Shown piece by piece: positions 5,239-43,921 of a stretch of 64,000 nt of DNA. The stretch lies in the NCBI GenBank assembly GCA_964187785.1, contig OZ076409.1, forward strand, positions 30,196,001 through 30,260,000, written 5' to 3'. Under the pieces are notes generated by a model. That model was not told the DNA's origin. It was given only the letters and a program-made list of their open reading frames with translations, and did no database searches. The position numbers and the translations under genes are program-made. Position 1 is the first letter of the stretch; each line of letters starts with the position of its first letter. The stretch is from Amphiscolops sp. MND2022 (lineage: Eukaryota).

Positions 5239-5445
5239 CTGTTTTGGAATGTAGGTTGCCAGCTGGTGTCTTTGAATTTCCAAACCAATGATCTAGCCAT
5301 GCAGCTGAATCTGGGCAAGTTTGAGTACAACGGCAACACTGGCTACTTGCTCAAACCAGATTTCCTTAGACGCTCCGATCGCAGATTCGACCCCTTTGCC
5401 GAAGCTCCAGTGGACGGAGTCATTGCTGCCACTTGTTCAGTTACA
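5239..5445 (+). CDS. PLCB4: PLC-beta exon, end of Y domain and linker to C2
   Basis: tttttcag acceptor, gttagt donor, 207 nt, phase 0; [40 protein letters not shown]...[20 protein letters not shown]. Confidence 0.96.
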
Positions 5446-5756
5446 GTTAGTATCTTAATGGCTATCCTCTGATCGAAATATTTAAAGTTCAGATTACGTC
5501 ATTTTAACGTCTTTGGGGGTTTTACCGTTATTGCCAGGCTAAACAGTCAAGTGTTGGATGTTCCTTCTAGAAGTCCGTTGCATAAAAAATGATCTGCCAT
5601 GTTTTTCTTTTGGTGCTTTTCCACATCAGTATTAAATGAAAAGTTTTTGATTAGTATACTTAGCATCAAGTTGGAAAATGAATGGTCAGGAAAACATGAT
5701 ATGCTGCTCAAACAATTCTGACAGAGTCATGTAAAGGTGATTTTGCATATTTCCAG

Positions 5757-6479: not shown

Positions 6480-7070
6480 ACATTCCACCCTTGTGTTTAA
6501 TCGAACAATGGAAGAAATGAGTCTTAAGCGGGCAGTTGATGATGTAATCGAGTTTGTTGAAGTTCTCGGAAGTTATTTGTATTCTTTGAAGAGAGATACC
6601 TGTTCGTTGTCGAACAGTTTTGAGCTTTAGAAAGCGGACGTTGATAAAGCGCCCGATAACCTTGTTGAGATGGTGACGACGCGGGCATCCATGGCACTGA
6701 CACCGTTTGGAAACGCCGCATTGTTCCCAAGTAAAATAAGCGTTGCAGTTTCACGTTAAAAAGAATCATACGAATCAGATGTAGTCCCAGCTTTATTAAA
6801 AACATTGCTGAAATAGTTCCGTACGAAGCCCAGTTGTTGAAGTGATTTTAAAGGCCTATCGGCATACTCGTATAGAAGAGTGGACTTCGCATGGGATATG
6901 ATCCAACGTTGGTGGATCTTGTCTGTTCCTTGTACACGCTGTTTCCTCACCTACGGACAAGCTGTGTTTTCCTACAGTGAGTCTCCCAGTACTGGAAATC
7001 GAGGAGCTCTATTGGAGTGGAAGAAAGCTGGGTAGCTATCCTTTTTCCTAGCGAGTTGAACCGTTGAAAT
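6480..7070 (-). pseudogene. Degenerate ORF with weak SGNH/GDSL-like motifs; probably the distal part of the unit at 12890-13560, split by the LINE
   Basis: Minus-strand PVLGDSL near 7000 and PSQQGYRALYQ near 6650-6675 resemble SGNH blocks I and V; frameshifted. Confidence 0.35.
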
Positions 7071-7377
7071 TAGATCGATATATATAAAAATTCTAATAAG
7101 CCCCGGTTTACGGGCTGGCTTTTATCAATAAACATATAGCATTTAATTATTGTACAGTTTAGTAAAACTTGGATTTTATGTCCATACAGTTTCAGTCCGT
7201 CCAGGCTGTTGTGTTATAAATGAATGACTTCAGGTCTTCAACATCGTCCTCATTGTAGACGTCCTTCATTTCAACACAGTCTGGTATTTTATGCAGGATA
7301 CACTCGAAGAAGAAGTGATACGGAGTTTCTTCTGATCTTTTACATTTGCAGAGGGGAGACTCACTTCTGCTGAGTTT

Positions 7378-9071
7378 TCATTTGTAATCTGCAAGTTTCA
7401 TGGTGTTTCCGATGAAGAATTCACATAGCTTGTTTGCAACATAACTGTCACCGTATACCAAGGGTGATAATTTTCTGTTTGATGGTTGGCTCGATTGGAA
7501 ATTTTTTAGGAAGCAGTTGTTGCAGGAGCTGTTCCATCTATTTCGCCAGTGACTTGTTATAAATGAATTGATTTCTGGAGGCGAATATTTCAGTCTTGTG
7601 TTACTTGGGTAAAGTTGGAAAAATCTTTTCAGGCTAGCTTCTAGGAAATTTGCTTTGCTCGAGGGTCTACAGAGAACGGATTGATGACGGTTGAGAACCA
7701 GATCGTTATTTTTCTTTAGCTTAATTGCAAATTTGATGGCAATACTTTCGCAAAGTATGTCTACAGGAGGCTGTCCAATCAGCGCTTGGCTTGCTTGAAT
7801 GGATGGAGATGGGCCGTGTTTGAAAACAGATCTAATGACGGAATTTTGAAAAGTCTGTAGTTTCTCCACATTTTTGTGATACCAAATGGGCGCTCCGTAG
7901 AGTAGTTGTGGTAAAATGATGGTTTTGTATAGAAATACTTGAGTAGTAATTGACAGTGAGTACTTCCTGGTGCATTTACAGGCGATAAGATTCCAATTTC
8001 TCTTGGCTTTGGCAATGCTCTGCTCTGTTTGTTCACGGAATTTTAATTTGTCGTCGATTTGGATGCCTAGGGATCTAGTAGATGATTTTATTTTACAGAG
8101 ATGCCCGTTCATTACAATAGCTGGTTTTGAAAAATTTCCTGCATTAAAAACTATTATCTCTGTTTTGGAACCATTGACCACCATCCGCCATTTCCGGCAC
8201 AAATTTCGAACTGCATCTGCAACTTCTTGTAATGTTGATTCGAGCGTACTGGGGATGGATACTTTGACGAGTACGGCTGTGTCGTCTGCGAATTTGAAGC
8301 GGGGAGAAAGCGTGCCGATGAAGTCATTTATGAACAATATAAATAAGGTTGGTGAGAGAACGCTACCCTGCGGGAGACCACTTTCAATCTTAAAAGGCGG
8401 TGAGTTGAACTTTCCTACTTTGATGAAGGATTCGCGAAAGAGCAAAATTGATTTAATAATGTAAAACATCCGACCCGTGATTCCCACTTGGTTGAGTTTC
8501 AAGAGGAGGCCATCGACCCATACGCTGTCGAAGGCTTTCTCTAGGTCTATATTAAGTAACGCACCACAGGTTTTTGTTCTCAGGACTTCTTCAATTGGAA
8601 GTTGCATTCGATAGAGAGATCGTACTGAGCTACGTTTCTCCCTAAACCCTTCTTGTTCCTCCTCTATGAGTAGGTTATTCTCGAGAAATATTTTCAGTCG
8701 TTTATTCAGAATTCTTTTGAGCAACTTACCGACATGGCTGGATATCGTAAGTGGTCTGTAGCTCGAGCTCGATGTATAGTTTGCCGTGCCAGCTTTTTTA
8801 ATGAAGATTACCTTCGATGTTTTCCAGGGCCAGTTTGCACTCCGGTAGCAATCATTGAAAAAATTTAGCGGACTTTGCTTAATTTTGGGTCCATAATGTT
8901 TCAACATAGACACATGAATGTTATCTGTGTCAAAGGCGGTCGACCGTGGGAGATTCTTGATTTCTTTTTCTGATTCAGGCATCGTAATTTTATCGTCGAG
9001 ATGATGAACATTTTCTACATCAGTGCCGAGCTTTTTGCCTGTAACGCTGACCGTTGCAAAGTGTTCCTGGT
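7378..9071 (-). pseudogene. LINE ORF2 reverse transcriptase (3' part)
   Basis: 566-aa ORF with all non-LTR RT motifs; joins the 10247-10706 segment in frame (QVF-D-QEHF) once 9072-10246 is removed. Confidence 0.93.
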
Positions 9072-10246
9072 TACACATGCGATAAGCAAGTGTTATGGGA
9101 AAGTGCGGGTGCTTTTTTTTCCGCGCGACAACTCTCTCATTTCACGCGGCAACTCGCACGTTTCACGCGTTCGTGGTCTAGTGGTAAGATGCCTGCTTTT
9201 CAACCCAGCGGTTTCGTGTTCGAACCCGTGGGTATGCGCTAATTTTTTTACAAGTCTTCCGAAGCAGAAAGTTCTCACATTTTTTGGCACTATGAGACTT
9301 TTCGGCTTTGTGAGACTTTTTTTCGAAATTGTTTTAATGTCCCCAAAGAGTCCTTTCAATTTTTTTGATATTTTGCAACAGATCGAATGGTAGAAAATTC
9401 CAGAAGGGCCCCTTTTTTCAGAATTTTCGGTACTATGAGACTGTTCAAAATTCTCATTTTTTTTGCAAATTTTTTAAAGACTCCCTTCTTATTTTTTTCC
9501 AAAAATTTTTAATGACAAAGGGTCCACCCTTCTCTTTGTTTGATATTTTGCAACAGAACGAATGTTAAAAAATCCCAAAGGGTCCCTTTCTCCAGATTTT
9601 TCGGCACTATGAGACTGCCATTAAAATTTCTATTTTGTTTTTTTTTTCGAAATTTTTTTAAGACTCCAAAAAGTCCCCTTCAATTTTTCGAAATTTTGCA
9701 ACAGAATGGGTATTAAAAAATCTCAAAGGGTCCCCTCTTTCACAGTTTACGGCATTGTGAGATTTTACAAAAGGAATAATTTTCGTGTTAAAATTTCGAG
9801 GTTTTCTCAGGCCCAGCACGCTATATCCGATTTTTTTTTTAAATAAAAAAACACCAGTTTTCTATGCGACTTTTTTAAAAAAATTTTTAAAACGAAGCCC
9901 CTCCTCAAGTTTTGCCGGAAACGAAAAGTTTTGCGAGAGTTAAGGACTCCTCAAGGTTTTCGCCACTATGCGACTTACCGGAGACCATCAAAAATATTTT
10001 TGGAAAATATTTCCCTCATTTTTTTGTTTTTTTAAAAGGTTTTTCGTTGAGAAAGATGGTTTTTTGCTGTTTTCAGTTGGGGAAGAATGGTTCTCGAGAC
10101 TTATGCGTATCCCTTCGGGTATTTTTGGCGCTGTAAAATTGATGAAATTTTAATGTCCTTTTACCCTTGGTTCTTCGTATGATATTGCTTATTTGGTTTC
10201 TTCATAAGTTCGCAAGTGTTTGCGAAGCACGGCTTCGCCTCTGTGT
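9072..10246 (+). mobile_element. HINE/DINE-like element family B with tRNA-like head
   Basis: 5' hairpin ACAC(A/T)TGC-GATAA-GCAAGTGT, 3' sub-TIR TCGCAAGTGT plus hairpin GCACGGCTTCGCCTCTGTGT; no TSD; near-identical copy at 62295-63469. Confidence 0.85.
9165..9241 (+). other. tRNA-derived (Glu-like) Pol III promoter segment inside the HINE
   Basis: A-box TGGTCTAGTGG and B-box GTTCGAACCC at tRNA spacing; stems imperfect, so probably not a functional tRNA. Confidence 0.6.
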
Positions 10247-12889
10247 CAAAAACTTGTTCCTGAAGATGACGTCCTTCGAAGAATGTTTGTTGCAGCTCTT
10301 CCGCTATTTCGGTTTCAGTGATGGCCAGTGCTCCATTTGCCTTCTTCAGTGGGCCAATCGGACTCTCTTCTGGTTTAAAAATCGTTCTATAGTTCTGCCA
10401 AAAGGATTTTCCTCTGTTGTGATTTAGGAACGTAAGTTTTTCTTGCATCCATTCAGAGGCCTTTTCTGCTAGAAGTTTCTTGAAATCCATCTTGGCAGCT
10501 TCTAATTCGTAACCGTTGCTGTAATTCGAGTGAAACTTGAACTTCTTGCGCAGTTTCCTTAAATTTGAGCTTTTTTCAGTGAGCTCTTGACACCAGAACG
10601 GTTTGCTATGTCTGGAGGTGACTTTCAAGGGAATGCATTTGCTAGTTACTTCATGTATTGCAGCCCTTATTGTGTCCCATCTTGTGTCGAGATTATCAGC
10701 ATCCAAGGTTTTGGCAATAGATTCATCGCATTCCTCTTCTAGGGCACAGGACCTTTTATTTCAGTCCGCTTTTTCGAGCCAAAGTTTTGTCGAACTTCTT
10801 ATTTGTTGATCAGGGACTTGACTGGTAACAAAAACGGGCACGAGACCGCGTTGCGGTGCACCGGTGAAAAGTTCAGTCTCAGTGTCTGTGGTGAGCTGAA
10901 ATTTATGTTTTTTTTTCAAGTGATCCGGTTACAATACAAAGATCTATTACGCTGGAGCCGTTACTGGCTAGGAAGGTTTCTTCTCCATCGTTAACTATGA
11001 TGTCATCGCTTGCGATATTTTCCACCAACATGTCACCATTTTTATTACAAGATGAGTCACCCCAATAGTAGTGCCTGGCATTGCAATCCCTCATGAACAA
11101 CATACCATCCAGGTCAGGTCATGTTTTACTATGAAGTTCGCAACGTTTTCCTTTTGACGAAGAAAACTCGTCATCTGTTCAGTCTGATTAGGTCTCAAGT
11201 AGGTCGTTCCAACGACAATTTTGAGTCCAGCAATTGAGGTTAGTATCCAAGCATTGTCAAAGTCCTCCGCTTCAAGATCACTCAGTCTTGTATTAAAAAT
11301 ATCGTTTCTGATGACCAGTGCTATACCCCCATAAGAACTTTTGCAAGTTGGTTCAGTGTAATAATTGGTGAAAGCGTTCTTCTCAAGGATCTTTTTAGTT
11401 TCATTTAGACAACAAATCATTGGTTTGTGTGTGTTCATGTAGTTGTTCAAAACCACTTGACTGCGGTCACTAATGCCACAAATATTAATCTGCAAGAAGG
11501 ATAAGGTTTTTTCAACCATTTCTGAGAGTCTATCCACTGCATGAGGTGGATGCATTCCTCTCGAGTTTAAAACTAAGGTTAGTTGACGCTGGTACACATC
11601 GCATAATTGATAACTTGCTGGATGGTCGCTGCCGCAATTTGAACATTTTGGCGTCTTTGTTTTGTTCTCGCAATCCTGGAATGAGTGTTCCCCACAGCAA
11701 TGTCCACACTTGGTTTCTGATTTGCAATTTGCGCTCACATGTCCGAACTTCTGGCACTTGAAGCATCGTATGATTTGAATCTCTTTTTGAATGAATGGTG
11801 ATGCGGAGTAATAGATCATATCGATAAACAGACCGTGTTCCAGTGCTTTCTGGACGTCGCCATCCGTTTTAAGCACTAACTTCACTGTTCCCAGGACTGT
11901 TGAATCCCTCTTTACAAATCGAGTTCCTTTCGATCCGTCGAATTGTTCATTCAGTGAATTTTGAATTTCCTTGTCAGTTAATTCTTTTGCTACGCTTTTA
12001 ATGATAACAGCTCTTTTGGGTTTTTCGGTGTTAGTAATTTTTCTCACAATGGACCCCTCCCCCAAGTCTTTCGGTTGCCAACTATCATACACTTCATCCG
12101 CCTCTTCCTTTGATGCAAACTCTAGATGGATATTTCCTCTTGTGGTGTTGAAAGCCTACATTAGTCGTTTCAACGGGTAGTGTTTGGCAAAATCTTTTTT
12201 AATCTGAATACTGCTTGTGAATTGTTTTGTTTTCACAACTATGAGGATGTTTTCAGGTTTTCGTTGTCGTTGTTTTTCAGCTGTATGAGTTTTTGACTTT
12301 CGAGGATGACCTAATGCACTAGCATAGGAGGCATGGTTTGTCTGCGGTGCGAGCACTCTCGACTCTTGCCCTGCCAAATTCTGCTGTATAGTAGAATTCG
12401 TTTCGGTGCAAATGTCTCTGAGTTCGTCAAATCGATTTGAGGTCTCCGTAATCAGAGCTTCATTTCGGGTGATGCTTTGAGACATGGTCTCTTTGATAGT
12501 TGTCATACAGTTTTCTATGTTAGCTTTTATGTTTGCAAGTCCACATTGGAGTGTTCCTTTTATTGTTGGATGACATGATGTGCAGAACCACATTGCTCCG
12601 TCTGTTTGCCCAAGTAGTTCAATTTTTTTCGAAAGTTGTGCACATGAACCATGAGTCAAATTTCCACATGAATCACAGAAAATAGAGGGATGAGAACCAA
12701 CGGGAGTGGAACATGAACCGCAGAGTCTATTTTTGTTGACTTTCCTTTTATTTCGGTCACTCATTTCGGTTACTCAATACAAAGCTGAAGGATATGTGAC
12801 ACTTACAAGACCAAGCACTATAACCACGGTAACAAAACCAGGTCACTGTGCTTAGTCTCAAAGGTCACACAAAGGAGACTGAAAGACAC

Positions 12890-13482
12890 TTACTGGTTCC
12901 GACTTTTTTTCTGGCTTCTTCGGCTTCTCTTCGACAGCCTCTTGTTGGGGTGCCGCTGTTGCGTAAGTCTTTCAAGGTTCCTCAGATTGTGAGATATCAC
13001 TCGAAATGTTTTGAGTTCGACGTTGGGTTTCTGATGAAGTTGAGAATATTCAGCAAAAATTTTGGGGAGTCGTCTTTTATTCTTTGGCAGAAGATCTCTG
13101 ACAATATTGATGATGAGGATTCCAGATTTCTTCAGCTGCTGATAGATGTGTTCAGTGTTTGTCTTTTGACAGTAAACGATGGCTACAATTTGATTCCGAT
13201 ATAATGACAGGTTTTGAAGGAGTTCATCCAACGAAAGAGGCCTGTTGTTGTTAGTAGCGTGCTCGAAAATTGAATTGCTTATAATTCATGCCAGATCAAA
13301 ATTTCATGATGTGGCAGGAACTTTGATAGTTGATATTGAACTGTTTTGCGTGTGTTCACTGAATGAGTGTTGAAGCTCAAGCCGGGTATAGCACGAACAC
13401 GTTGAGATAGCTGTTGCTGCTGTTGTTTCGGTAGATTTCTCAGGGCGTGATGAAGGGAGCTTGCGCCAAGGATGAAAAACAT
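12890..13482 (-). pseudogene. ~197-aa ORF with one frameshift (possible SGNH-like fold), preceded by a leader-like motif
   Basis: MFFILGASSLHHAL...AIPGLSFN...ILIWHE / ISNSIFEHATNNNRPLSLDELL...IVAIVYCQ...EYSQLHQ...basic tail; two ORF-track fragments join across a frameshift near 13280. Confidence 0.55.
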
Positions 13483-13534
13483 GTACGAAACAATCAATCA
13501 AGTATCTGAAATCACACGTGATAAACTTATTAAA

Positions 13535-13560
13535 TTTAATAAGTTTATCACAACAATTAG
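13535..13560 (-). other. Spliced-leader-like motif (relic) with inverted partial duplication
   Basis: CTAATTGTTGTGATAAACTTATTAAA on the minus strand; shares a 20-nt core with 43869-43899; 13518-13551 is a perfect 34-bp palindrome. Confidence 0.6.
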
Positions 13561-13718
13561 ATCGAATCTAACAATTTTTGGACATGTTTTCAATTTTAAA
13601 ATGGTAATTTACATGTTGTTTTTATCAGCTCAATATGAATGCCTTGATGTATTCGAAAGTCTGTTGGAAATGGTTGAATTTTGGATTGGATTGTTTATAT
13701 TGATGATTGTTCGTGCAG

Positions 13719-38100: not shown

Positions 38101-38427
38101 GTTAGTTATAAACTTCATTTTCTGCAATTCACTTTCAATTTTTAGTTGATTTTGGGCGGTGATGATTTTTTGTTCTTGGTATTTTGGTATTATTCAGTTA
38201 GTAATCTTGTTCAAAATTTATCAACTCATCGATGTAATATTGTGTTTCCTTTCAGCATCGATACATATTGTAAAATTTTGTGCGGCTTAAATGTTTTTAA
38301 AAAATTTTCTTGAGACACCGTGGATAATAAATAATAATAAATTTATTTATCCTGTTTTCAATACAAAAATTATTCAATTTATATGTTTCTCGAGCTGGAG
38401 ACTGAAGTTAAGTTAGGATGTCATTAA

Positions 38428-38975
38428 CCCCAATTGACCTGGGCGTTTTTTAAACTTTTCAAAAAAAATTGACAAAAATTTTTCAATCATCAATATCTCC
38501 CCAACTACGCGTACCAGAGGAACGAACTATAGCGCGTTTGAAAGCTCTGATATTGGGCTTTCATTTTGGTCAGCTGAGCCCCTGTCATCGCGCGCCCCTT
38601 CCTTCAGAATTTTAGTCTCTTTTCCGCACTTCCGCGGTAGTTCCGCACTAACAATATTTTAGGGTTTTGTTGCACCAGGACTTGTTGTGGAAGGATATGT
38701 GGTTGGTTTTTTCTACTGATCAAAGACTTTTGAGAAAACTGGATTTCGTCAAAAACTGAATTTTGAGAAAATATAACTATTTTTGGTGCAAAAAAAACAT
38801 TCTTCTCAGCTTTGGAGACATATTCCCTTTTTCTAATGCTTGTGCCATTCAAATCAATCTAGGTACCAATTACTTGTTGAAAAAAACTGTGCTAGAGAAA
38901 ATGGGCTACTGGCAAAAGGAATCAGAATTTGGAAGAAAGGTAGGCTGCTTTAAAGCACCACTAGGTTCATTGGGG
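38428..38975. mobile_element. piggyBac-type MITE (second family)
   Basis: TTAA-CCCCAATTGACCT ... AGGTTCATTGGGG-TTAA. Confidence 0.82.
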
Positions 38976-39469
38976 TTAAGATGGAGTTCAGAGGTTAGAA
39001 ATTTTCTCAAAACGCCTCCACAGGAGACATTTTTTGAACTAGTGTGAACATTTCTGTACAGCCTTCCGATTACACGTTTAACTTTGACGTAGCGCACAAG
39101 AAGGCTCTCTGAAGAAATGAATTCGTTGAGAAATCGGCCTAAAACGAGCGAAAAACGCAGAAATCCCGGATTTTTCTACAATTGCCTTCAAATATAATTC
39201 TATTCTCTTTCCTCTTCACATACACTTCCATTCCTCCATCTGCTAACTGCGAATTGTATAACCCTGAGGAAGGGCTACATCGGACATGGACCGTCCAATT
39301 GAGTACAGGCAGTTAGAAATGCAGGTGAAAAGTAGAGATGGTAGAGCACCTTTTCTTTGAAAAAATGACCCCAGCCGTTTTAAACTCTCGGGAATTTTCT
39401 TGACGACTGGATTCACCACATCTAGCCATACCGATACTTTAAATTAGTTGTAAGTCGGGAAGCAATACG

Positions 39470-39953
39470 TTTTTAGTCGGCGCTTTATCCTTTAAGGAAA
39501 AATGCCCGACTATAGCAGTGACCTTTTTTCTCTTGAGACTACAATCCTCACACTGATCGGTCCACTTTTTAGAAACAATCCTGAAACCAACTAAGGCCAA
39601 GTCCGGCCCAGGCAAACTTGCAAACTTAATTCAAAGGGTCCCCCTTTCATTTTTTACTTTTTCAAGGGAACATACACATCCAGACGTGCCTGAAGGGTCC
39701 CCCCCCCACTTTGGATTTTTTTCGGCACTGTGCGACTTTTTTCCGAAAATTTTCAAAGTCCCCCTTTCAAGTTTTTTGATATTTTGCAACAGAATGTATG
39801 TTATAAAATCCCGAAGGGTCCCCCTTTTACATTTTCAGCACTATGCGACTTTTTGTGAAAGAAAAAATTTCAAAACTTTCAGTTTTCTCCAAAATAGTTT
39901 TGCGCTTTTTGAGCTTTAGATATTGCGTCGACTTTAGACGTTCTCGTCTTGTT
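39470..39953 (+). mobile_element. HINE/DINE-like element, family A
   Basis: TTTTAGTCGGCGCTTTATCC ... GTCGACTTTAGACGTTCTCGTCTTGTT; close copy at 59231-59713. Confidence 0.82.
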
Positions 39954-39959
39954 AAATAT

Positions 39960-42900
39960 AAAGCTATTCCGGAATTCTATACTCAATAAATTCAAGATGT
40001 GATCAATCAAAAGTATTTTCACTTTCCAGACCTAAGTGTCACTCTTTTATTCAAATCAAAGAGAGAATCAACTGGTTCTTGGTTTCTAGAAGGAAAGTAT
40101 TCGTTAAAAAATAGTCATTGATCCGAGTGAAAAATTTTTAGGCAGATTTCCCCGAAAATTCAGTTCATTGAAAAACGTCGGCACTGTGTGATACAGAATT
40201 CTTACAATGCTTGTTACGGGTTATTGGCACTTGTGCTCTTTCTGCCACCCGTAGTTCGTAACAAGATGTAGTTTGTTGGGTTATCATCGAATTAAGAAAC
40301 TCAAGGCAATGTTCTTTTTTCAGGCATTTCAGAATGATTTTTGTAATTTCATACAAATGAAATTCATAAACAGTATGAATTTTATTGCTGTTCATCACTT
40401 CCCTGACACTAGCTGAGAAGCTCAGGTGAAAGATACATCTAATTCTTTTTTGCATCTTCAAAATGGGTTGCAAATTCGAATACATGGTTCCTCCATATAT
40501 GAGCACTCCATACTGAATTATTGGTTTGACATGAGTTTTATAGTAGATCAACAACGAAGATTGCGTCAGCACTTGACGTGCCTTCAACAAAACATGGAAA
40601 CATTTATTCTATTTTTTCTTACCCAATTCAATGTGGTCCTTAAATGTAGGTTCATCAACTAGAACTCCCAGTTCTTTCACACTTGAAGCTTTTTTCAATG
40701 CAATGCTTTCGAACTTCAAGCTTTCGAGTTCGTGTTCTTTGTTACCGAAGATTTCCGGCTTTGATTTTTCAAGATTGCATTTTAATTTTTTGTACTTCAT
40801 CCATTCATCAATCGTGTGAAGTGAGTTGTCCAAAGATAATTGATCTGACTGACTTAAATTTTCAAGAACATTGGTGTTATCGGCAAATTTCGTCACTATG
40901 GCGCTAATGCGATACGGAAGGTCATTAACATGAAGCATGAAAATTAGACGTCCCAATTACCGAACGCTGACTTATAGTGACTTCCACAGTTTCCGAAAAT
41001 TCATTTCCAATTTGCATGTATTGAAATCGGTCGCTCAAATAAGCATGTATCAGTTTGATGATAGGGTTGAAACCTAAGTTGTACAACTTCTCCAACAAAA
41101 GCCTGTGGTTTCTGTATCAGTGGCTTTTTTGAGTTCCAAGATACACATTTTCCTTTCTACTTATTGATGATATGATTGATTCTATCACATTCAAGCGCAT
41201 CGATTGTTTGTCTTTTTCGTCTAAATGTGAATTGATTTCCATCAAGCAAACAAAAGGTATGTGAAAAAGAAACGATGCAATTGTAAATTACTCGTTCAAA
41301 AATTTTGCCAATCCAGACAACATTGAGACATGTCTATAAATGTCAAATTTATTTTTATCTCCGTCTCTGTAGATTGGAATCACTTTAGCTATTTTTAGGC
41401 TTTCCGGAAAATTTCCTTCGCGCGCAGGCATCGGTTGATGAGTATTCGGAGCGGTTCAATATAAGGACCTTATCACTAATTCCATCGGGGCCAAACGAAA
41501 TCTTGTTCTTGTGTTATTGCACAAAATTACAAAGTTCCAAACCAATGACTGGTAGACGAAACATCGATTGCACTCTCGGGGAATGTGGTAGACTCATTTT
41601 TTTAAGGTCAATCGTCTTTTGATTGTTTGAGCCACCTGCTACAAAATAGTTGTTGAAATCATTTAATTTTTTTCTCGATAGCTACGGCATTGTTCGTTCA
41701 TCTCTTTTACCTAGTACTTCATTCAAGTTACTGTGAAATGCTTTGCTATCGGCTCCAATGACCTTGAACTTTCCGTTGGTAAAGACATGTTTTTTTTCTA
41801 TTTATCAATTTATTACGATTTCTCTAGTCTCTAAATCGCTGTTTCAAATTTCCATCATCGGGTGAAAGGCATACTTTCTTATACAACTCATCACGGGGCC
41901 TGATTAGACGTTTACTTCTGTTGTCCACCCATGACTTGTGTATTTTAGTAACCGGACTCTCCGGAGCAAAATGAACCAGAGCAGGATAAATTGGTTGTTC
42001 GCAGTAGTTCCTCGCCATCGTTTATTTCAATGCTCTCTTAGTTGACTGAAAGCAGAATCGATTCTTTATGACTTTTCCGAGGACTTGATATTTCACGAGC
42101 TTCTTCATGTTACGAGTGACAATTTTTCTTTCCGGGGGAAAATTAGTTTTTCGAACCTGACCCACGCCATGAAATTGTCAGTGAATGTACTATGATAAAC
42201 GTGATTTTCAAAGACAGGATTATCGGAGTAGATGTGATCCAAACAAGTTTTGAATTCCTTTGAGCTCTCGTCACTTCTAAAGGGCTTCTGAGTTCAAGAT
42301 TCTTATTTCTCATAATCTGTAATTCTGTCGAGTGAATAGTTGGGACCGAAAGTTCGATTTTGAATTTTCCGGAGACGGAAATTTTGCCATTGTTCGCTCG
42401 CAATCTCATTTATTCAAGTTCCAACCATTCACAATATTGAGATTTAAAAACCTTTCTGACTCTGCGGTAGGTGACGCAAACGATTCCTTCGAAGGATTAC
42501 ATAATTCTCACTATCAACCCTTCATGAGCAGTATCTTTCAGTTGTACTTGGTAGGCAAACCTTCTATCATTAAAGAGGCCCACTACCTCTCTTTTCCCGT
42601 CAGACCTTAACTAATTTTAAGTTACTAATTTGTGGTCACCCAATTTGTTTGGATTGCTGTTTTGTTTTCAGTAACGCACGTTTCGGTGAACGCTATTATG
42701 TTCGCATTGACTGTTTTTGTCTTTAGATAGACTTCAAACTCATCGAAGTGATTGTCTAGTGATCTTTTGTTCGTATTTAGGATTGTTCTTAATGGTTCTT
42801 GGGTTTCACTGCGTTTGCATTGTAAGAAAAATCAGAATTATTCAACGATCTAACATTGTGTTTTTGACAGTTCGTGGAAGAACTAATAATCTCAATTTCA

Positions 42901-43899
42901 GGTTTCTTCTCCAGTTTCACCCCACAAAAGCTGCCCCGTTTGAAGCAGGCCATCACATCATGTAAACTGTAATTGAGAAAAATACCACCATCATCTTATC
43001 CATGTATTCTGCAGACCTTCCACTCGTTTTTCCATGTGACAAAAAATTGTTATTTCTCGGATCCACACTTTCTCCAATCGTGAATCTCTCTTCATCATGT
43101 TAAAGAATTCAAGCCTCGTTCGGGTGAAATTTTCACAGTTTTCGTTGTTTCATCGGAGAATAGTTCCTTCTTTTTCAAATTTATTTTCGCCATCCCTCTG
43201 GAGAATCAATCGAACAATTATAGGGCGCGTTATTCCATTGCGGGCGCGTCAGCGGTGTGCAATTGAAATGATCTCATCTAAACCAGCTTTAAGTTTATTC
43301 CATACTTGAATAACATTTTCGATGGACGTCTCGTATGTTTCCCCTGTATCAGTAGGTGACGTTTTTGGTTCCTCAGGCAAACCCAGTATCCTGACATTGT
43401 CTCTGCGGTTATAGGAATACTGGAATTCAGCCTCTGGTAGCGTTAATAGTGCAATTCAATTTTCACTGGAGGTCACTGTATTTTGAATGCGACTCGTCAA
43501 TTCAACTTTCAGCGACTGTCTGTACTGTATCATTCACCATTTCTTTGATCGACTTTTTCAATTGCGTGGTCAGGTTTGAAATGATATGCGGAACAACTGC
43601 TTGTATGGATTCTTGAATTGTGAGTCGAATGTTTTCAGTCATTTCGTTCGTTTCGTTCGGAGACTCGATACAGCTCATCCACGTTTGTCGTTTGTCTTCG
43701 GCATACGTGTTTGGTATTGGACGCGTAGTACAGGTAAACCGCCCTCTTCAGCGTTAATAATTGCCGTCATTCCGTAATCATCAAAAATTTCACCAGAGAC
43801 ACCCACTTCTGGATGAGATGTGACTTCATTTGAGTTTGCAGTATTGCCATTTTTCACCATATCTAAAACTTTTAAATAAGTTTATCACAACAATCAGGC
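39960..43899 (-). mobile_element. Full-length but decayed CR1/L2-like LINE starting with a leader-like motif
   Basis: ORF1 remnants (ATG at 43860; NRRDNVRILGLPE..ISIAHR); ORF2 remnants (endonuclease GDAN, RT FMLHVNDLP..KFADNT, YYKTHVKPIIQYGVLIYG). Confidence 0.85.
43869..43899 (-). other. Spliced-leader-like 31-mer at the LINE 5' end
   Basis: GCCTGATTGTTGTGATAAACTTATTTAAAAG, ending in AG, 8 nt upstream of the ORF1 ATG (43860); second copy at 13535-13560. Confidence 0.62.
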
Positions 43900-43921
43900 T
43901 AGCTAGTGGATAACCCTGGTA

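Follow-up and report, generated by a model that had tools for sequence, protein, structure and literature searches.

Non-LTR retrotransposons must recreate their 5' end in each round of replication, a problem for which the known solutions are use of an internal promoter, of a ribozyme, or of a transcribed target as the insertion site. The 64-kb stretch of acoel DNA analyzed here (the window) contains a decayed CR1/L2-like LINE, designated element 1, that begins with a sequence resembling a spliced leader (SL). This raises the question of whether a LINE can obtain its 5' end from host trans-splicing. The motif was found where the initial annotation had placed it, on the minus strand, terminated by AG, and 8 nt 5' of the ORF1 ATG (43860). 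Its 19-nt core is, as reported there, present twice in the window. Only 0.08 occurrences are expected and none of 100 shuffles gave two, so chance was rejected as the origin of the motif. The motif had been described as a 31-mer. Its identity as a leader stood, but its length is 32 nt because it begins one base earlier, at A43900. The same initial A precedes the motif in those SL-RNA genes of the array that were printed, and the full 32-mer is present at 41 of 60 dispersed chromosome-1 sites.

These 32 nt are the acoel spliced leader. They correspond to the published leader of Symsagittifera (PMC9911081), with an offset of one base at each end. The 19-nt core has 2069 exact copies in the genome, compared with 0 for a reversed control. 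The SL-RNA genes for which a search had been suggested exist, with a donor GT and an Sm-like site. Many of the core copies are in tandem arrays of 904-bp units, each of which also includes a 5S gene. The SL-RNA unit comprises the exon, an AG/GTAAGT donor, two stem-loops (z -3.6), and the Sm-like site AATTTTTG, and 56 of the 59 copies counted in the array are identical across exon and donor. The first 32 nt of element 1 correspond to the SL exon up to the donor and include none of the SL intron.

The leader is also present at the 5' ends of unrelated mRNAs, as expected if it functions in host trans-splicing. For example, a leader-headed retrocopy of eIF2A lacks the first intron of its parent, and the parent has a pyrimidine tract and TTTCAG exactly at the position of the retrocopy's leader junction. 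A TRPM-like locus (89% identical; it may be a paralogue) has TTTAAG at the leader junction. TTTCAG is the host acceptor both in trans and in cis. A scan of metagenome contigs, which come from other samples, yielded 54 leader matches. The leader opened 39 of these contigs, which were transcript-like, and 33 of the 39 had diverse ordinary host Pfam domains. Three further matches were SL-RNA genes, and 12 were leaders preceding LINE-like ORFs. The 12 LINE-like contigs had no nucleotide match to the loci studied here and thus come from other organisms; 8 of them continue with TTTCA, CTTCA, or TCTCA, and two have the anti-leader hairpin described below. The genome paper on S. roscoffensis reports that 30.2% of genes are trans-spliced, and the available passages and supplement of that paper never link the leader to LINEs (PMC9911081).

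Several other features of the SL-RNA and related loci were observed. Variant SL-RNA units (L209:5679-5850, L211, and L022) carry an extra 130 nt 3' of the donor, terminated by a second GTAAGT. At 16.23-16.28 Mb of chromosome C1 (L013-L030), several L1/Tx1-like families, with RT and zf-RVT domains, interrupt the SL exon within the SL-RNA/5S array. The insertion point invariably follows exon nt 17, and these 17 nt are duplicated. The families resemble SL-gene-specific elements of a non-RLE type, and their position is directly behind the SL promoter. Leader-headed pieces of host mRNA, derived from eIF2A and, in three copies, from a TRPM-like gene, lie between common flanks (L088:1362-6000, L200, L255, and L256). 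These flanks are 97-99% identical and switch at the same base before the leader, possibly reflecting a candidate LTR-type carrier that captures trans-spliced mRNAs via the leader. A tandem array of at least 46 U2 snRNA genes is located on chromosome C4 (81044275-81083745), and its upstream DNA is unlike that of two dispersed U2 copies on C6.

The limits first assigned to element 1 (39960-43899) were too short; its extent is listed with the other features of the window in Table 1. The membership of element 1 among non-LTR elements is indicated by a simple-repeat 3' tail and a target-site duplication, with 5 extra bases on the 5' side between the duplication and the leader. Two later insertions (about 39475-39944 and 38385-38976) interrupt it. 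The ORF1 of its relatives has a weak match to an L1-type RRM (Transposase_22), and a PDB search with one ORF1 gave no useful match. The window copy is decayed, but ORF2 of relatives L129 and L130 contains Exo_endo_phos and RVT_1, indicating an APE-type element. The L1-type RRM ORF1, the ORF2 with APE and RT, the simple-repeat tail, and the short duplication are all shared with LINEs of the CR1/L2 group, a label that here denotes architecture, as the RT tree took in elements of this genome only. LINEs of this group typically have an internal promoter. Element 1 differs in that only 8 nt of 5' UTR follow the leader, which leaves no room for the usual internal promoter, nor for an HDV-like ribozyme fold.

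Table 1. Features of the window, with coordinates as positions in the 64-kb stretch
Feature	Position	Strand	Remarks
Host phospholipase C exon (PI-PLC-Y)	5239..5447	+	Pfam match
Further probable phospholipase C exons	13719, 15258, 44202		read by eye
Element 2, I-group-like LINE	7079..13560	-	PHD 12159-12773, zinc knuckle 11094-12155, RT 7381-9141
TTTCAG acceptor hexamer of element 2	13506..13511	-	
Anti-leader arm pairing with 3' half of leader	13518..13534	-	hairpin, z -3.8
Second leader relic, 5' end of element 2	13535..13560	-	lacks first 3 nt and terminal AG
3' copy of 8-bp target-site duplication, element 1	38320..38327	.	
Element 1, whole CR1/L2-like LINE copy	38328..43900	-	about 84% identity to three relatives
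(TTA)n 3' tail of element 1	38328..38340	-	
Decayed ORF2 of element 1	40050..42900	-	limits approximate; APE endonuclease and RT matches in relatives
Decayed ORF1 of element 1	43000..43860	-	lower end approximate; ATG 8 nt past leader
Retained downstream (distal) acceptor hexamer of element 1	43863..43868	-	host acceptor is TTTCAG
Spliced-leader relic, exact 5' end of element 1	43869..43900	-	32 nt; compared with exon of SL-RNA genes
5' copy of 8-bp target-site duplication, element 1	43906..43913	.	

The family of element 1 was gathered by its body sequence. Of the other copies, four extend to the 5' end, each beginning at the same A. Thus, 5 of 5 full 5' ends consist of the leader, starting at the identical base with unrelated flanking DNA; one further copy is 5' truncated. 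The leader relic in the window has 3 substitutions relative to the SL-RNA gene exon, and the hexamer after it is TTTTAG, with TTTCAG in 4 of 4 relatives. Insertion of element 1 into an SL gene, in the manner of CRE, SLACS, or NeSL, was rejected because the five copies have unrelated flanks and no SL intron; the family also has two ORFs and an APE endonuclease. The window copy is a dead member of its family, located antisense in an intron.

The initial annotation regarded the match at 13535-13560 as the head of a unit with no other similarity. It is instead the 5' end of a second LINE (element 2) with I-group architecture, including an ORF1 with PHD and zinc-knuckle domains. Element 2 is bounded by an 11-bp duplication (7068-7078 and 13555-13565), which the first 6 nt of its leader relic overlap. 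Its 5' end is ordered as the leader, an inverted copy of the 3' half of the leader, and then TTTCAG. Elements 1 and 2 both lie in antisense orientation within a phospholipase C gene, between exons of which one was identified by Pfam and the rest by eye. Element 2 (12890-13285) and the elements at L126, L079, and L122 contain an additional ORF (200-280 aa) that separates the leader from the PHD ORF and for which there was no Pfam match in the two that were scanned.

The association of the leader with LINEs extends throughout the genome. There are about 640 dispersed exact leaders, 592 with A, C, or T as the next base and 48 with a G that is not part of GT, as counted with patterns of slightly different length. 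On chromosome C1, all leaders followed by A, C, or T were evaluated, and 53 of these 56 sites had sense-strand ORF1 or ORF2 homology within 5.7 kb. The three exceptions were the eIF2A copy and two sites without class. A controlled count of 81 distinct sites, made with queries from leader-headed elements and with self-matches removed, found a sense match in the next 1.4 kb at 69 sites and in the upstream 1.4 kb at 14. The 12 sites that were missed consisted of 2 host mRNAs, 6 sites matching other leader-headed elements as DNA, and 4 without class.

The leader is not the 5' UTR of a single LINE family, and that source of the motif was rejected. Ten lineages with long open ORF2 frames are only 22-49% identical to each other in ORF2, and RLE-type elements are headed by the leader as well. 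The architectures include a PHD or RRM ORF1 with an APE-RT ORF, a zinc-knuckle ORF1 with an APE-RT ORF, and a single-ORF RT type. The last of these has C-terminal CCHC and PD-(D/E)xK-like motifs, is CRE-like as judged by eye, and is dispersed. The clade names used here (CR1-like, I-like, and CRE-like) denote architecture rather than placement in reference trees.

A search independent of the leader gave a similar result. From the 150 endonuclease matches listed of 2548 candidates, 20 loci with open frames of at least 900 aa were selected. Eight of these had the leader, one had a 9-nt remnant of it, six were truncated members of leader-headed families, three had an HDV-like fold, and two were without class. 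Thus, the 12 determinable 5' ends were 9 leaders and 3 HDV-like folds. A further set of twelve 220-nt segments, chosen where the 5' end was expected, contained 7 leaders and 5 blanks, which are probably truncations.

Automatic searching for target-site duplications over 56 elements gave mostly chance 7- to 9-mers, with 2 convincing duplications of 10-12 bp at the expected distance; duplications are claimed here only where both ends were inspected. The stacked relic leaders that the initial annotation anticipated were not found in complete form, as none of 103 sites had a second leader 3' end within 150 nt. Partial duplications of the first bases of the leader were present at 4 of the 103 sites. 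One element (L226) is chimaeric, with the leader and first 30 nt of one family on the body of another, and L228 has a 9-nt leader remnant.

The sequence following the leader differs between LINEs and host mRNAs. The first base was a purine in 37 of 39 host-type RNAs represented by metagenome contigs. A pyrimidine followed the leader at 49 of 60 chromosome-1 sites versus 2 of the 39 mRNA-type contigs (Fisher p 1e-14), which indicates that the usual LINE junction is not the product of an ordinary acceptor. The commonest hexamers after the leader were TTTCCG (17) and TTTCAG (16). Genome-wide, 306 leaders were followed by a hexamer of the TTTCAG/TTTCCG type, with a pattern that could not match SL genes, and the canonical leader end was present in all 100 matches listed of the 306. 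Other families have a TTTCAG-like site further downstream, at a distance of 27-43 nt and preceded by a pyrimidine tract or a hairpin. A TTTCAG-like acceptor was present within 45 nt of the leader in 15 of 30 distinct 5' types, compared with a mean of 1.5 in windows from the element bodies and 2-6 in upstream DNA. Most leader-headed elements have TTTCAG, or a version of it without the AG, directly behind the leader, and the variants of several lineages lack the AG and keep the pyrimidines (TTTCCG, TTTCAT, and TTTCCT). Ordinary trans-splicing would remove the acceptor signal, and thus its retention requires an explanation. In some CRE-like families the leader is joined directly to a purine, and these families may persist without a retained site. 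One transcript-like contig (L334) starts with the leader and TTTCAG and has no LINE or Pfam match; it is possibly a proximal join, at the first AG, on a non-LINE RNA.

Copies that lack the retained site provide information on its function. In one family, the hexamer is retained in 45 of 55 leader-headed copies, and the other 10 lack exactly those 6 nt. No other spacing between 0 and 8 was found in the 55 copies. In a second family, 24 of 28 copies have the proximal junction, and 4 lack exactly 27 nt, ending in TTTTCAG. Both forms of junction are present in two more families, and each of the first two sets of distal copies includes a tandem pair. The tree of the first family, for which 9 of the 10 distal and 17 of the 45 proximal copies were taken and 3 rearranged rows among them then dropped, was largely unresolved, with one starred branch. 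However, two linked sites mark a subfamily of 4 distal and 5 proximal copies, another site marks 1 distal and 5 proximal copies, and a single clade of distal copies was rejected (AU p 0.00017). The distal copies of the second family likewise belong to different subfamilies. A leader substitution common to two non-sister copies was within chance and was not counted as evidence. Distal copies thus arose repeatedly, which implies that LINE RNA has been trans-spliced again and again and that the products integrate, as the initial annotation had proposed in suggesting trans-splicing onto LINE RNA. At the DNA level, these copies demonstrate that the downstream AG occasionally serves as the point of leader addition, with loss of the retained signal, and that the retained site functions as an acceptor.

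In at least four lineages the 3' half of the leader, including its AG, can form a hairpin with a downstream arm. In an alignment of 8 hand-picked rows, 96% of the cells were paired, with G-U changes and one two-sided change. These anti-leader hairpins are 14-20 bp, are often closed by a tetraloop, and occur in unrelated lineages (element 2 at 13518-13560, L073, L092, L196, L202, L183, L150, L122, L079, and L302). The hairpin covers the proximal AG and should hide it, yet 24 of 28 copies of one such family have the proximal junction. Conceivable roles are to place the distal site close to the branch point, to shield the product from further splicing, or to imitate the stem of SL RNA. Leader-less families had an HDV-like fold at the 5' end at three loci (E 3e-4 to 0.12, all under the gathering score). 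These folds (L227:417-482, L231:2428-2493, and L282:668-740) head two single-ORF, ingi/RTE-like families. In leader-less families the fold seems to be another promoter-free device, and the leader and ribozyme strategies seem to coexist in this genome.

The observations to be explained are the identity of the leader, its exact 5' position, its spread over lineages, and the retained acceptor with its repeated use. They suggest that leader-headed LINEs renew their 5' end through trans-splicing and do not carry a promoter. We consider it likely that these LINEs define and cap their 5' end via host SL trans-splicing, with each round rebuilding the parent. A copy located downstream of a host promoter would be included in a read-through transcript, in which the spliceosome would be recruited by sequence near the element's 5' border, either the retained TTTCAG or a pyrimidine tract. 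The leader would be spliced to the first AG past the branch point, namely the one that terminates the DNA relic. Between nt 3 and 30 the leader is devoid of AG, and about 25 nt before its end it contains CTAAT, which resembles a branch site; a scan for the first AG would therefore stop at the relic's AG. In this way, the old relic would be lost together with all host RNA 5' of it and replaced by a fresh capped leader. The resulting RNA, consisting of the leader, TTTCAG, and the ORFs, would be translated and copied back by target-primed reverse transcription, generating an identical promoter-less copy. Only an element that keeps the signal downstream of the junction could repeat this cycle indefinitely, and an element that lost the second AG but retained the pyrimidines would have its self-renewing junction locked in. 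Splicing of read-through RNA at the relic's own AG, with the element rebuilt each cycle, is probable judging from the DNA copies.

The germline of C. elegans favors an AG located 6 nt 5' of TTTCAG, and the tandem 3' splice sites (NAGYYYNAG) described in passages of PMC4484395 have the same arrangement as the LINE junction. The C. elegans sites function in cis-splicing of host introns, whereas the acoel sites would function in trans-splicing onto a transposon, with a hypothetical germline preference. By analogy with this nematode precedent, we infer that such a preference could extend to trans-splicing here. We lean slightly toward the broader view that most acoel non-LTR lineages (CR1-like, I-like, and CRE-like) converged on, or have long shared, a promoter-free cycle in which the relic is its own acceptor, the retained TTTCAG drives germline-type proximal joining, and the 5' end and cap are rebuilt from host SL RNA every generation. 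The interpretation of the initial annotation, that SL trans-splicing underlies the leader-headed LINEs, is supported. The promoter-free cycle that it also proposed is less certain, since the relic might have a promoter role. Three results would have contradicted it: absence of the motif from unrelated mRNAs, lack of an SL-RNA locus, and restriction to the UTR of one family or to random positions. Each was evaluated, and the opposite was found.

Alternatively, the relic could be an internal promoter. The leader would have been captured by trans-splicing, and transcription would start at +1 of the relic, with unspliced RNA as the usual template and TTTCAG used only sometimes. Nematode SL genes, which have a promoter element within the exon, offer a precedent. 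Such a promoter would account for the exact starts at +1 and fits the hairpin that hides the relic AG. A promoter role for leader relics has been proposed for dinoflagellate retrogenes, according to passages of PMC5585692. Comparison of the DNA upstream of SL and U2 genes gave a best local score of 7, which 465 of 500 shuffles reached; no upstream element common to the two was found, leaving room for an exon-internal promoter. However, this explanation leaves the match between the retained motif and the host acceptor, and the motif's activity as an acceptor, unaccounted for. Because each distal join eliminates the motif permanently, its erosion would be expected unless it is needed. The exact leader is common to lineages 22-49% identical in ORF2, although this exactness is partly due to selection by the search pattern. 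The conserved block upstream of the SL genes is absent from LINE copies, and there is no cap-derived G: an extra G preceded +1 at only 2 of 41 sites, with no enrichment. The lack of an extra G is weakly consistent with a cap that is unable to pair, and the enzymes may not copy caps at all. On balance, an internal promoter is unlikely.

Trans-splicing of the leader-headed LINEs might also be incidental. Unseen master copies with their own promoter and outron would produce RNA that is trans-spliced like 30% of host genes, and the leader-headed copies would be dead ends. Host mRNAs are retrocopied together with the leader, and a master copy could have been missed because only part of each family was sampled. 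However, ordinary splicing would remove TTTCAG rather than keep it, and the subfamily structure indicates that several leader-headed copies served as sources. Furthermore, no full-length copy has an outron in place of the leader, either among the 5 of 5 ends in the family of element 1 or among the 12 determinable ends (9 leader and 3 HDV-like). We regard such passive tagging as improbable. Even less plausible is template switching by the reverse transcriptase onto SL RNA or an SL-capped mRNA, with the 6- and 27-nt variants arising as microhomology deletions. Jumps do occur at these 5' ends, as seen in the partial leader duplications (4 of 103), the chimaeric L226, and the 9-nt remnant at L228. 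Nevertheless, the joins lie exactly at the exon donor end and at host-type AGs, with no other spacing in 55 copies, and intron sequence, expected as a frequent by-product of switching onto SL RNA, was not seen. Renewal of the 5' end by trans-splicing is thus the explanation that we favor.

Leader relics on retrogenes, SL-gene-targeting elements, and ribozyme-headed LINEs are already known. R2 is an example of a LINE headed by an HDV ribozyme. In these elements, which include L1Tc and ingi, the 5' end is likewise cut from a longer host transcript by an inherited internal signal, but by self-cleavage without a cap, whereas the acoel LINEs would rely on spliceosomal addition of a leader and, presumably, its cap. 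CRE, SLACS, CZAR, and NeSL are likewise SL-linked non-LTR elements, thought to be co-transcribed rather than self-promoted (passages of PMC3636483). However, they insert into SL genes, whereas the acoel elements are dispersed, have the whole exon and no SL intron, and are mostly of the APE type. SL-gene-targeting elements are present separately in this acoel genome.

The acoel LINEs also carry a leader relic at the 5' end of a retrocopy, the characteristic of SL-relic retrogenes. In dinoflagellates, DNA copies of the leader are similarly found at the 5' end of reverse-transcribed RNA, and both the AG of the relic and a promoter role have been discussed (passages of PMC5585692 and PMC12014239). 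The dinoflagellate relics, as these passages describe them, are on host genes and are truncated and stacked, with stacks of complete relics typical (PMC12014239). In contrast, the acoel relics head autonomous elements of multiple lineages and consist of one complete leader with the acceptor kept downstream and no stacks in 103 sites. No publication on dispersed LINE families headed by a leader was found in literature that largely excluded subscription journals and Repbase reports, and a retained tandem acceptor on leader-headed elements was not found in print within the same scope.

If correct, renewal by trans-splicing would be a further solution to the problem of recreating the 5' end, used by most of the LINE lineages sampled in an animal genome. 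LINE activity would depend on the supply of SL RNA and on germline splice-site choice, and sense insertions would truncate host genes. The leader junctions would provide a DNA record of the choice between proximal and distal AGs in the germline, and the leader would be a marker for full-length insertions. The acoel LINEs would also permit leader relics to be evaluated as promoters versus acceptors, a point also at issue for dinoflagellate retrogenes.
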